Source: Escherichia coli (GTDB taxonomy: Bacteria; Pseudomonadota; Gammaproteobacteria; Enterobacterales; Enterobacteriaceae). From it: DNA of 64,000 bases. Of this stretch, positions 41,875-50,649 are shown one piece after another. Below the pieces are notes generated by a model. The model did not search any database, was not told the DNA's origin, and saw only the letters and a program-made list of their open reading frames with translations. Location of the stretch: the NCBI RefSeq assembly GCF_013315695.1, contig NZ_CP054353.1, one strand, 5' to 3'. A program made the position numbers and the translations under genes. Each line of letters starts with the position of its first letter. Positions within the stretch are counted from its first letter, which is position 1.

Positions 41875-41883
41875 CACAAAGCG
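41875..41883. repeat. IS1 target-site duplication, left copy (CACAAAGCG)
   Basis: Identical 9-mer directly abuts both ends of the IS1 element. Confidence 0.85.
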
Positions 41884-41898
41884 GGTAATGACTCCAAC

Positions 41899-42402
41899 TT
41901 ATTGATAGTGTTTTATGTTCAGATAATGCCCGATGACTTTGTCATGCAGCTCCACCGATTTTGAGAACGACAGCGACTTCCGTCCCAGCCGTGCCAGGTG
42001 CTGCCTCAGATTCAGGTTATGCCGCTCAATTCGCTGCGTATATCGCTTGCTGATTACGTGCAGCTTTCCCTTCAGGCGGGATTCATACAGCGGCCAGCCA
42101 TCCGTCATCCATATCACCACGTCAAAGGGTGACAGCAGGCTCATAAGACGCCCCAGCGTCGCCATAGTGCGTTCACCGAATACGTGCGCAACAACCGTCT
42201 TCCGGAGCCTGTCATACGCGTAAAACAGCCAGCGCTGGCGCGATTTAGCCCCGACATAGCCCCACTGTTCGTCCATTTCCGCGCAGACGATGACGTCACT
42301 GCCCGGCTGTATGCGCGAGGTTACCGACTGCGGCCTGAGTTTTTTAAGTGACGTAAAATCGTGTTGAGGCCAACGCCCATAATGCGGGCTGTTGCCCGGC
42401 AT
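41899..42402 (-). CDS. insB: IS1 InsB (transposase C-terminal frame, expressed as InsAB' by -1 frameshift)
   Basis: 167-aa ORF matching IS1 InsB (…[21 protein letters not shown]…). Confidence 0.93.
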
Positions 42403-42596
42403 CCAACGCCATTCATGGCCATATCAATGATTTTCTGGTGCGTACCGGGTTGAGAAGCGGTGTAAGTGAACTGCAGTTGCCATGTTTTACGGCAGTGAGA
42501 GCAGAGATAGCGCTGATGTCCGGCGGTGCTTTTGCCGTTACGCACCACCCCGTCAGTAGCTGAACAGGAGGGACAGCTGATAGAAACAGAAGCCAC
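42321..42596 (-). CDS. insA: IS1 InsA (transposition inhibitor / N-terminal transposase frame)
   Basis: 91-aa [26 protein letters not shown]…; the A6C slippery run lies in the insA/insB overlap. Confidence 0.93.
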
Positions 42597-42646
42597 TGGA
42601 GCACCTCAAAAACACCATCATACACTAAATCAGTAAGTTGGCAGCA

Positions 42647-42970
42647 TCACCCACAAAGCGTATAATTTAATAAGCGTCCTAAACCACTGACGGTTTGTGA
42701 TAACGCTTCTTCTACTGCGCCCACCGAGCCATAAATCACCAGCGCGCCGCTAAAACGGTCGAGAAAACCGATATGCACATCGGCGGCTTTCAACGCTAAA
42801 TCACCGGCGATCATCGCCGTTTCTCCGGGAGTTAGCGTCATAATGCCAATTGCGCCCGCATCCGGAACGCCGATTTTCTTCGCCAGTTCCTCGCCGGGAT
42901 GCGCGATGAGATGCGCCAGTGTGACCTGTTTACCGGGCACAAATTCCTGAATGATGCGTTCTTTATCCAT
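42647..42970 (-). CDS. eutS: Microcompartment shell protein EutS with C-terminus rewritten by the IS1 insertion
   Basis: Product from ATG at 42970 ([21 protein letters not shown]…, permuted BMC domain); reading frame enters the IS1 inverted repeat and stops at 42647-42649. Confidence 0.88.
42652..42660. repeat. IS1 target-site duplication, right copy (CACAAAGCG)
   Basis: Identical 9-mer directly abuts both ends of the IS1 element. Confidence 0.85.
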
Positions 42971-43335
42971 GAGTCGCCGCCTGTGAAAAACTTTCGTGTA
43001 TCGTGACAATTTTTCGTCAGAGTAAATAACAAAATTCGGCAAGCGCGTTTAAAAGGTGAGGTAGATCACGAACAATGGGGAAAATACTTTATGCAAAGAA
43101 AATCACATACATCACATGAATACAAACAGGAGTCGATAAGTTTTATTTATCATATGTTACCCACCCCATTTTTAATGGTTCTTCGCATAACCCTATGTAG
43201 CATTTATAATAATTATCAGAATACATATCCCATGAACTGTTGTATTCTGAAAATATTATTATACTCACCCCATTTAAGGTACAACATAAACGATGAGTTT
43301 ATTCAGGGCATAAAAGAAATGGATGGATACCTGTA
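42971..43335. promoter_or_regulatory. Divergent AT-rich control region: eut operon promoter (upstream of eutS) and promoter of the glycosyltransferase gene
   Basis: 365-bp visibly AT-rich intergenic region between divergent eutS and the GT gene; the main eut promoter is known to lie upstream of eutS; individual sites not resolved. Confidence 0.4.
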
Positions 43336-44406
43336 ATGAAAATTCACTACCTTGTCACCACTCTCGAAACGGGAGGCGCTGAATTTGCGATTCCTGATAT
43401 TGTGACTACTCTACAAGATCTTGGTCATGAGGTGAAAATTTATGTATGTGAACCCCGAGATATGGGCGCGGCACCGCGTCTGAAAGCGGCCGGTTTATCC
43501 TGGTGTTTATTATCAAATCGGCGGCGTTCTGTTCCAGTGCTTGTCGGTGCTTATCTGGCAAAAATCATTTACGACAAACCCGATCTCATCTGGACTTCGT
43601 TAAGTTGGGGGACGCGTATTGGACAATGGGGCGGCCGACTTATGGGCATTCCGGTTATCAGTTTTAAACATAGCGCCAGCGTAAAACCAGCAACCTGGCG
43701 TATGCGCAGCATGTCACGTTTATGGATTGGCGATTCTGCAACCGTAACTCAATACCTGCATGAAACCATGCGGATCCCGAAGCAACAAGTGATGTGCTGG
43801 CCTTTTTTTCAGGCTAATCCGCAAGCTGCTCAAGCGAAAAAGTGGGACGGGGTATCAGTTTTACAATTAGGCACCGTTGGTCGCCTGCATGAAGTTAAAA
43901 ATTACGCAGGATTAATTACTGCACTCGCTTCGTTTGTCGATAAAAACCCGCAATTGCGCTCGCGAATCCGACTAACCCTTCTCGGTGAGGGAGCCGAACA
44001 AGAGGTTTTGAAAAAGACCATAACACAACACGCCATGGAGGATGTAGTTTGTTTAGCGGGGTTTTCTGCGGATATCGAAAATTTTCTTGCCGGATTACAT
44101 GTCTATATCCAAACTTCCCGCTACGAAGGGATGTGCCTCGCCGCACACGAAGCCATGAATGCAGGGCTTGCGATCATTACGCCCCCTGTAGGTGAACTTA
44201 AAGAATCGGTAATTGATGGTCATACCGGCTATATACTTAATGGCGAACTAACTCCAGCACTGGAGGAAGTACTTAACCGTATTTTCAATGAACCCACAGA
44301 ATTACAACACTATGGGCAAAATGCGCGTCAGTATGTATTACAGAAATTCAGCCATGAAAATTTTGTCCAGTCTGCAATCAACATTGTTAATAGACTTATT
44401 CACTGA
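43336..44406 (+). CDS. Glycosyltransferase, GT-B fold, family-4-like (retaining), orphan accessory gene
   Basis: 356-aa ORF; N-terminal Gly-rich motif (TLETGGAEFAIPDIVTTLQDLGHEV) and C-terminal EX7E motif (YEGMCLAAHEAMNAGLAIITPPVGE) typical of GT4 enzymes; lower G+C than neighbours. Confidence 0.75.
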   Translation: MKIHYLVTTLETGGAEFAIPDIVTTLQDLGHEVKIYVCEPRDMGAAPRLKAAGLSWCLLSNRRRSVPVLVGAYLAKIIYDKPDLIWTSLSWGTRIGQWGGRLMGIPVISFKHSASVKPATWRMRSMSRLWIGDSATVTQYLHETMRIPKQQVMCWPFFQANPQAAQAKKWDGVSVLQLGTVGRLHEVKNYAGLITALASFVDKNPQLRSRIRLTLLGEGAEQEVLKKTITQHAMEDVVCLAGFSADIENFLAGLHVYIQTSRYEGMCLAAHEAMNAGLAIITPPVGELKESVIDGHTGYILNGELTPALEEVLNRIFNEPTELQHYGQNARQYVLQKFSHENFVQSAINIVNRLIH

Positions 44407-44409
44407 ATA

Positions 44410-44445
44410 AGGCAGTAAAAAGGCATTTTTTGGTACTGCCTTTTC
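44410..44445 (+). terminator. Terminator-like hairpin after the glycosyltransferase gene
   Basis: GGCAGTA…TACTGCC stem with inner A5/T5 pairing, followed by TTTTC. Confidence 0.4.
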
Positions 44446-44954
44446 ACCGAATACTATGGTTATCGTACTTGTCGTGGCGATGGGAAAAGTCGTTACAGTT
44501 TTCATTCCCTTGCATAGCCGTGACGCCCCCTTTTCACACACAAAGAAAATGGTGGATGTTTTATACTCCTCCACCACCAAAGGCAGTCAAGATGGATAAG
44601 TTAATGCTCGCCCATGCCCCCAATTTATGGGCCATGGAAAAACGTCTTGCAAACAGCTGTGTACGGGAATAATAGCAGTGCGGGTATGAGCAAGACATTA
44701 TTTTATCATGACGGGCAAAATTGCAGCCGGACCTAGGGCGGTGCATTGCAGATGCTGAAACTGGACCCGCTATGTTTATTATCTCCAGAATTTAATGCGT
44801 CTGGAAGTACCTACAACTGCTGCGCCTTTTATTGATGGCATGCATACGCTTTCTGGTGTTGGCGACGTTACATTCATGATGCCTGGCTACAACTTAAGGG
44901 CTCGCCTCAGCAATTCTGAGTGGATGTACAGCGGCGTATACAGAAGTGGGTCAG

Positions 44955-44990
44955 CAAAACCGCTTACCCCGAATAAACAGGGTAAGCGTG
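44955..44990 (-). terminator. Terminator-like hairpin downstream of maeB
   Basis: Minus strand reads CGCTTACCC-tgtttattc-GGGTAAGCG followed by GTTTTGCTG. Confidence 0.45.
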
Positions 44991-48543: not shown

Positions 48544-50547
48544 ATGTCCCGAAAAGACCTTGCCAATGCGATTCGCGCACTCAGTATGGATGCGGTACAA
48601 AAAGCCAATTCTGGTCATCCCGGCGCGCCGATGGGCATGGCTGATATTGCCGAAGTGCTGTGGAACGATTTTCTTAAACATAATCCTACCGACCCAACCT
48701 GGTATGATCGCGACCGCTTTATTCTTTCCAACGGTCACGCGTCGATGCTGCTCTACAGTTTGCTGCATCTGACCGGTTACGACCTGCCGCTGGAAGAACT
48801 GAAGAACTTCCGTCAGTTGCATTCGAAAACCCCTGGTCACCCGGAAATCGGCTATACGCCTGGTGTTGAAACCACCACCGGTCCACTTGGACAAGGTTTG
48901 GCGAACGCCGTCGGGCTGGCGATAGCAGAGCGTACGCTGGCGGCGCAGTTTAACCAGCCAGATCATGAAATTGTCGATCACTTCACCTATGTGTTTATGG
49001 GCGACGGCTGCCTGATGGAAGGTATTTCCCACGAAGTCTGTTCGCTGGCGGGCACGCTGGGACTGGGCAAGCTGATTGGTTTTTACGATCACAACGGTAT
49101 TTCCATCGACGGTGAAACCGAAGGCTGGTTTACCGACGATACAGCAAAACGTTTTGAAGCCTATCACTGGCATGTGATCCACGAGATCGACGGTCACGAT
49201 CCGCAGGCGGTGAAGGAAGCGATCCTTGAAGCGCAAAGCGTGAAAGATAAGCCGTCGCTGATTATCTGCCGTACGGTGATTGGCTTTGGTTCGCCGAATA
49301 AAGCAGGTAAGGAAGAGGCGCACGGCGCACCACTGGGGGAAGAAGAAGTGGCGCTGGCACGGCAAAAACTGGGCTGGCACCATCCGCCATTTGAGATCCC
49401 TAAAGAGATTTATCACGCCTGGGATGCCCGCGAAAAAGGCGAAAAAGCGCAGCAGAGCTGGAATGAGAAGTTTGCCGCCTATAAAAAGGCTCATCCGCAA
49501 CTGGCAGAAGAGTTTACCCGTCGGATGAGCGGTGGTTTACCGAAGGACTGGGAGAAAACGACTCAGAAATATATCAATGAGTTGCAGGCGAATCCGGCGA
49601 AAATCGCTACCCGTAAGGCTTCGCAAAATACGCTTAACGCTTACGGGCCTATGCTACCGGAGCTGCTCGGCGGTTCGGCGGATCTGGCTCCCAGCAACCT
49701 GACCATCTGGAAAGGTTCTGTTTCGCTGAAGGAAGATCCGGCGGGCAACTACATTCACTACGGGGTGCGTGAATTTGGCATGACCGCTATCGCCAACGGC
49801 ATTGCGCACCACGGCGGCTTTGTGCCGTATACCGCGACGTTCCTGATGTTTGTTGAATACGCCCGTAACGCCGCGCGGATGGCGGCACTGATGAAAGCGC
49901 GGCAGATTATGGTTTATACCCACGACTCAATTGGCCTGGGCGAAGATGGTCCTACGCACCAGGCTGTTGAGCAACTGGCCAGTCTGCGCTTAACGCCAAA
50001 TTTCAGCACCTGGCGACCGTGCGATCAGGTGGAAGCAGCGGTGGGCTGGAAGCTGGCGGTTGAGCGCCACAACGGACCGACGGCACTGATCCTCTCCAGG
50101 CAGAATCTGGCCCAGGTGGAACGTACGCCGGATCAGGTTAAAGAGATTGCTCGTGGTGGTTATGTGTTGAAAGACAGCGGCGGTAAGCCAGATATTATTT
50201 TGATTGCCACCGGTTCAGAGATGGAAATCACCCTGCAAGCGGCAGAGAAATTAGCGGGAGAAGGTCGCAATGTACGCGTAGTTTCCCTGCCCTCGACCGA
50301 TATTTTCGACGCCCAGGATGAGGAATATCGGGAGTCGGTGTTGCCTTCTAACGTTGCGGCTCGCGTAGCGGTGGAAGCAGGCATCGCCGATTACTGGTAC
50401 AAGTATGTTGGTCTGAAAGGGGCAATTGTCGGGATGACGGGTTACGGGGAATCTGCTCCGGCGGATAAGCTGTTCCCGTTCTTTGGCTTTACCGCCGAGA
50501 ATATTGTGGCAAAAGCGCATAAGGTGCTGGGAGTGAAAGGTGCCTGA
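48544..50547 (+). CDS. tktB: Transketolase 2
   Basis: 667-aa product from ATG at 48544 ([40 protein letters not shown]…); ORF track start at 48481 overlaps talA and is an extension. Confidence 0.95.
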
Positions 50548-50649
50548 TGGTGATCGCCGGATGCTGTATGTTCCCCTAACCCTAACCCTCTCCCCAGAGG
50601 GGCGAGGAGACAGTCTGTGCGCTTTTTAGGGGCGCATCTGGGATTTTGT

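Follow-up and report, generated by a model that had tools for sequence, protein, structure and literature searches.

The use of ethanolamine affects the competition of E. coli in the gut, and a natural variant in which the eut promoter had been rewired would be of interest; the evidence presented here is of an intact promoter in normal AT-rich surroundings. In Salmonella Typhimurium and E. coli O157:H7, the enterobacterial eut promoter P1 lies directly upstream of eutS, and a review describes a conserved element upstream of its −35 (PMC5821096). Binding of EutR to the eut promoter and its induction by ethanolamine plus adenosylcobalamin have been reported in O157:H7 and Salmonella (PMC5821096; PMC4643982), and the footprinted EutR site is, according to the review, a conserved element located just upstream of the −35 (PMC5821096). 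We analysed a 64,000-nucleotide stretch of E. coli DNA (the window), in which the eut operon, on the minus strand, is followed by maeB, talA and tktB, and in which an islet carrying a family-4 glycosyltransferase (GT4) gene stands next to eutS. Like P1, the eut promoter of the window lies directly upstream of eutS with a conserved box before a weak −35, and its 99 bp are those of K-12. Unlike the usual setting of P1, its upstream neighbour is the GT islet and not the maeB terminator region, and 6 of 19 bases beside it are changed, while the promoter itself is the same.

The locus can also be compared with other described systems. It resembles xenogeneic DNA silenced by H-NS in that the islet was horizontally acquired and has a 5′ region of 31% GC, far below the genome; it differs in that the islet is no more than mildly AT-rich in its coding part (46% GC) and in that the native DNA it replaced is equally AT-rich (28% GC in K-12), so that AT content does not discriminate the islet from the native state. 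As in araC-araBAD, one intergenic region serves two divergently transcribed genes, but here more than 110 bp lie between the predicted GT promoter (43182-43210) and the eut boxes (43022-43069), which have different origins and neutrally evolving DNA between them. The order and spacing of the islet genes are those of the GT4 + GINT1_N cassettes found in Shimwellia, Rouxiella, Rosenbergiella and acetic acid bacteria, each of which has a non-coding region of 350-590 bp before it, and the GT is 64-67% identical to its nearest relatives outside of E. coli. Unlike in those cassettes, the second gene in the window is a pseudogene, and the sequence upstream of the GT gene has no detectable sequence in common with the cassette upstream regions of other genera.

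The intergenic gap comprises 365 bp (42971-43335), from the ATG of eutS at 42970 (minus strand) to the ATG of the GT4 gene at 43336 (plus strand). The explanation that we favour, at a probability of roughly three in four, is that this gap consists of an intact eut promoter and the 5′ end of an acquired two-gene cassette, with eut regulation essentially unchanged; it builds on observed boundaries, conservation pattern, population distribution and composition. The two pieces would be unrelated and stand back to back: the 99 bp next to eutS would be the native eut promoter, and the sequence beyond 43088 would be the 5′ end of a horizontally acquired GT4 + GINT1_N-like cassette. This cassette would have taken the place of ~122 bp of AT-rich native spacer that separated the eut promoter from the maeB terminator. 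The front of this cassette would comprise ~110 bp of unconstrained spacer, followed by ~135 bp of better conserved sequence that most likely carries the GT promoter, a possible operator or 5′ hairpin, and a ribosome-binding site. The region is an ordinary junction, at which an intact core promoter meets the non-coding 5′ end of a rare cassette that was acquired. The gains are modest, namely the exact end of the eut promoter (43069) and a cross-genus definition of two operator boxes with a spacing of 27 bp; a further gain is the recognition of the eutS-maeB gap as a recurrent landing site. The features on the eutS side of the gap are as follows.

42971-43069, minus strand: main promoter of the eut operon with its 5′ leader, native sequence with 100% identity to K-12 and to a second islet allele, of the ST648 type, and holding all of the blocks conserved across genera
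43000-43008, minus strand: candidate extended −10, TGtCACGAT in the eutS direction; yAnnAT, mostly with TG before it, is conserved across genera
43022-43042, minus strand: proximal box TTGCCGAATTTTGTTATTTAC, upstream of or overlapping the −35, with a core that is fixed in position in Enterobacterales
43056-43069, minus strand: distal palindrome GTGATCTACCTCAC (GTGATC-N4-TCAC), the last conserved promoter element, resembling a CRP site (GTGA-N6-TCAC)
43070-43088, no strand: diverged copy of the native flank, with 6 differences in 19 bases (68% identity) from K-12, the ST648 type and other Escherichia species

An alignment to the K-12 derivative J53 showed no differences in the window between the eutS start codon and 43069 (99 bp) and divergence from 43070 onward, so conservation of the K-12 eut promoter sequence does not extend over the whole region. 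The conserved promoter ends at 43069, divergence from K-12 begins one base past the distal palindrome, and the suggestion of the first-pass annotation that the AT-rich end of the islet directly adjoins the eut promoter was borne out. The conserved block, directly upstream of the first gene of the operon, is composed of a short leader, the extended −10, a poor −35 and an operator of fixed geometry made up of the two boxes. When 22 eutS upstream regions from many genera were aligned, conservation began abruptly at the GTGATC palindrome and continued to the start codon, and no cross-genus conservation was found upstream of the palindrome in this alignment. In Citrobacter and Klebsiella, the maeB-eutS gap is only ~160 bp in length and holds just a terminator, indicating that no sequence further upstream is needed there.

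The core of the proximal box was found at a fixed position in all 44 Enterobacterales eutS loci and was absent from the 16 other loci; at these 16 loci, which lie outside of Enterobacterales, neither of the two operator boxes was found. The spacing between the proximal box and the distal palindrome (27 bp) is invariant in 41 of the 44 loci, and the remaining three carry palindrome variants differing by one base. The assignment of the boxes rests on this phylogenetic footprinting together with the description given in one review, and from these we infer that the proximal box is likely the EutR site; the sequence of the EutR site did not appear in the papers and supplements searched. The sequence at 43000-43008 is the putative −10 element of eut. 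The distal palindrome would be a CRP-like site; its support comes from conservation only, since as a bare match to the CRP consensus it is not above chance. A 15-nt direct repeat (GTGAAAAACTTTCGT / GTGACAATTTTTCGT, 42983-43017, with a spacing of 20 bp) overlies the presumed −10 and the 5′ leader and, within the cross-genus alignment, is present in Escherichia sequences only.

The features on the far side of this boundary belong to the islet and to the resumed native sequence behind it.

43089-43200, no strand: AT-rich spacer of the islet, with 74% identity between the two islet alleles
43091-43336, plus strand: open frame of 81 codons, its stop in overlap with the GT start (TAATG), judged to be non-coding
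43182-43187 and 43205-43210, plus strand: predicted GT promoter (−35 TTCGCA, 17-bp spacing, −10 TATAAT), the sole consensus promoter match in the region
43201-43335, plus strand: GT-proximal segment, better conserved, with 83% identity between the islet alleles
43212-43225 and 43241-43254: inverted repeat ATTATCAGAATACA / TGTATTCTGAAAAT, with 15 nt between its arms, shortly after the predicted GT −10
43321-43328, plus strand: ribosome-binding stretch GGATGGAT upstream of the GT start
43336-44406, plus strand: intact GT4 gene of 356 aa, with Pfam GT4/GT1 domains on its homologues
44419-44955, plus strand: pseudogene of the second gene of the cassette (GINT1_N-like, PF24793), located by tblastn with the intact ST648 copy
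44961-44988, minus strand: maeB terminator hairpin, within the resumed K-12 homology

The islet (43089-44951, ~1.86 kb) stands where K-12 has ~122 bp, and homology to K-12 resumes at 44952. Counted from the eutS start codon, the ST648-type allele departs from K-12 only after 117 bp, so that the original junction of native and islet DNA falls at the equivalent of 43088/43089 in the window. The six changed bases beside the distal palindrome, within 43070-43088, fall at positions that are conserved within Escherichia and not across genera. Of 5,426 complete E. coli genomes, 5,290 have an intergenic region of the K-12 type at nearly full length, and islet-like DNA was found in 90; five of these 90 carry the islet at an identity of at least 99%, one (GF131) carries a hybrid, and 84, including strain ST648, carry an allele that is ~88% identical. 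In a genome-collection scan for EutS with one genome per species, which yielded 63 eutS loci (62 from other species and one further E. coli), neither the GT nor the second gene had a homologue near eutS at any locus. The spacer of E. whittamii and of two other Escherichia species is of the K-12 type, without the islet. The GC content of the cassette is 46%, compared to about 53-55% in the flanks. The GT + GINT1_N pair also occurs as a unit at other sites, next to sufA in Shimwellia, next to nadA in Rouxiella and on metagenome contigs. The status of the GT islet as an insertion, which the first-pass annotation had raised as a condition, is upheld by its rarity, by its absence from the 63 eutS loci and by the presence of the cassette elsewhere.

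Against NCBIfam, the GT gene gave generic matches only, below the curated cut-offs. Downstream of the GT gene, the ST648-type allele has an intact gene of 300 aa carrying a GINT1_N domain; the counterpart of this gene in the window is heavily decayed by deletions, frameshifts and stop codons, its partner GT still being intact. The two alleles differ far more in the islet than around it: eutS and maeB differ by less than 1% between the window and ST648, whereas the islet differs by 9-20%, and the divergence at fourfold-degenerate sites of the GT gene reaches 27%. This difference in divergence suggests that the window allele was likely imported by homologous recombination. The islet of GF131 is a hybrid, ST648-like on its left side and window-like on its right side, and together with the contrast between islet and flanks it points to allelic exchange of the islet by this route. 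The source of the window allele was most likely a diverged lineage that already carried the islet at the eutS-maeB site. The window would then hold a diverged version of the islet, probably recombined in via the flanking eutS and maeB sequence, and such an event would explain why divergence begins 19 bp nearer to eutS in the window than in the ST648-type allele. A patch at 50350-50640, inside a stretch that is 97-99% identical to K-12, shows 53 mismatches per 300 bp against K-12 and is close to ST648.

Within the front of the islet, the identity of 74% across 43089-43200 matches the 27% divergence at the fourfold-degenerate sites of the GT gene, indicating that the spacer evolves at the neutral rate, and comparison with shuffled controls revealed no significant similarity between this spacer and the replaced K-12 segment. 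The scan for consensus promoters that detected the GT promoter found none in the ST648 allele or in the K-12 region, so the prediction is specific to the window allele and its position is uncertain; a relaxed scan returned weak sites in the window, ST648 and K-12 regions, with no contrast between the three. The 9-nt core arms of the inverted repeat are identical in the ST648 allele, whereas the neighbouring sequence differs by 17-26%, and the repeat could be an operator or a 5′ hairpin. A structured RNA leader or riboswitch before the GT gene found no support: the leader has no Rfam match at E ≤ 1 and folds no better than shuffled sequence (z-score −0.66). The AT-rich tract is best read as a spacer together with the GT gene's own promoter and leader.

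The gap has a GC content of 34.5%, compared to 53.1% for the whole window, and the two A/T strings singled out in the first-pass annotation were found, TTTTATTTATCATATG starting at 43141 and TTTATAATAATTATCAG starting at 43204; the coordinates and GC content of the AT-rich gap were likewise confirmed. Its description as strongly AT-rich holds for 43071-43335, at 31% GC, and was overstated for the first 100 bp (42971-43070), at 43%. The AT-richness is real, yet it is not special to this strain, as the K-12 eutS-maeB gap is about equally AT-rich, with 42% GC in its first 100 bp, 30% in the other 192 bp and ~34% overall. Compared to the native arrangement, the AT-rich tract is longer (~266 bp against ~190 bp, or ~75 bp more), and it is now adjoined by 1.9 kb of sequence at 46% GC instead of by maeB.

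The first-pass annotation suggested that the AT-rich end of the islet could place the eut promoter under H-NS-type silencing or change the access of EutR, as an alteration of eut regulation in addition to that caused by an IS1. In the form weighed here, silencing would be nucleated in the AT-rich end and spread over the promoter, or EutR would be hindered, and strains with the islet would regulate eut differently. It is true that the distance from the last conserved operator element to novel DNA of 31% GC is 1 bp (window) or 20 bp (ST648 allele), that the AT-rich tract is lengthened as noted above, and that 43133-43142 matches a published high-affinity H-NS motif at 9 of 10 positions. However, the native flank is at least as AT-rich: the replaced K-12 flank has 27.9% GC compared to 31.3% for the islet flank, the non-promoter flanks of all of the other Escherichia variants examined have 25-28%, and both intergenic regions have ~34% overall, so that AT-rich DNA beside the eut promoter is the normal state. 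The number of H-NS motif matches in the window (8, against 4.05 expected) was equalled in 7 of 100 shuffles, and the match at 43133-43142 is not conserved in the ST648 allele (CCAATAAGTT). The density of A/T runs, a crude proxy for curvature, gave no clear separation of the islet flanks from the native flanks of Escherichia, K-12 having the lowest, and the literature search returned nothing specific on H-NS occupancy or derepression in hns mutants for islet-bearing strains. Silencing is thus unsupported, with motif matches that do not clearly exceed chance and a replaced flank that was equally or more AT-rich, and altered regulation by this means is unlikely. The same applies to the access of EutR, given that the operator boxes are unchanged and all of the elements conserved across genera lie inside the untouched 99 bp.

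The gap had also been described as a control region shared by the two genes. No joint element was found: the predicted GT −35 (43182) lies ~140 bp from the eut operator boxes, no conserved element is placed to act on both promoters, the intervening 43089-43200 diverges neutrally, and the two halves differ in origin. As judged from the sequence, the region is divergent yet not demonstrably shared. With the promoter elements intact and an AT-rich neighbour that is normal for the locus, the claim of a second change to eut regulation in this strain finds no support, and we infer from the intact conserved elements that eut regulation is essentially unchanged. If eut output were changed, the cause might be the greater length of a tract prone to H-NS binding, or supercoiling that couples eut to the divergent GT promoter; in the window allele alone, it might also be the six base changes beside the distal palindrome, for which a small effect on contacts of an activator or of the RNA polymerase alpha subunit is possible. 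A real regulatory effect of the islet edge on eut nonetheless appears decidedly unlikely, and we hold it to be just as doubtful that replacement of the spacer changes eut output in the islet lineages (ST648-type and window-type) and thereby gives rise to lineage-specific use of ethanolamine in the gut.

The insertion sequence in eutS is more likely to affect the operon, and it is located as follows.

41884-42651, minus strand: IS1 of 768 bp, with both inverted repeats located and a 9-bp target duplication CACAAAGCG at 41875-41883 and 42652-42660
42647-42970, minus strand: eutS, shortened by IS1 to 107 aa according to annotation and translation

The element interrupts the last codons of eutS, such that EutS ends in ...LNYTLCG* instead of ...LNYTLCEMTKS*, and it separates the promoter and eutS from eutP and the downstream genes (the other sixteen eut genes), on which it is likely polar. 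The sequence of the window matches MSB1_4I exactly, and in this identical record the element is annotated as IS1A; AF14 carries an identical islet and no IS1. The islet of AF14 without IS1, together with the 84 genomes carrying the sister allele, indicates that the islet is much older than, and independent of, the IS1. As the cause of any altered eut expression, the IS1 inside eutS is far more likely than the islet edge.

It was also considered whether the AT-rich tract codes for a real protein of 81 aa, its translation coupled to that of the GT, in which case most of the supposed control region would be a gene. Starting at an ATG, the frame runs open for 81 codons, with its TAA overlapping the GT ATG, a stop-free run of equal length occurred in only 22 of 2,000 shuffles, and some sources annotate the frame as a hypothetical protein. 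Nevertheless, its product has no homologue except itself among 5.8 billion proteins and no NCBIfam match, and the ST648 and GF131 alleles, which make up the majority, carry frameshifts and stops in this frame. Differences between the alleles are spread evenly over the three codon positions (16/14/18, p = 0.78), compared to 20/15/64 in the GT gene, the RefSeq annotation of MSB1_4I omits the frame, and the Shimwellia and Rouxiella cassettes have no small gene ahead of the GT. The 81-codon frame was rejected as a gene on account of the missing homologues, the frameshifted alleles and the even codon-position substitutions, and a coding role for the tract is very improbable. Least probable is that the islet is ancestral at the locus, with the K-12-type gap a deletion derivative and the AT-rich region old native sequence: two islet alleles do occupy the same site although they have diverged like different species (27% at fourfold-degenerate sites), and patchy weak similarity can be aligned between the K-12 segment and the left end of the islet, but shuffled sequence reached equal scores in 25 of 300 and 39 of 300 cases, so the similarity does not exceed chance and was rejected as homology, the K-12-type segment without the islet is what E. 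whittamii and the two other Escherichia species carry, only a terminator stands at this position in Citrobacter and Klebsiella, and the cassette differs in GC content from its flanks and is found at unrelated loci in other genera.

The preferred reading, an acquired cassette set beside an intact eut promoter, concerns a gap in which unrelated genes seem to have landed repeatedly, in several genera. Unrelated insertions were seen in the eutS-maeB gap of other genera, and the GTGATC palindrome always lies on their eutS side: an anaerobic sulfatase maturase gene is present there in Salmonella enterica subsp. diarizonae, about 3.7 kb in Salmonella enterica subsp. arizonae, and about 2.5 kb with other ORFs in Intestinirhabdus. 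Within E. coli, strain SCPM-O-B-8794 carries a third, shorter spacer variant between the eut promoter and the maeB terminator, the sequence of which is unrelated to the K-12 type or to the islet.
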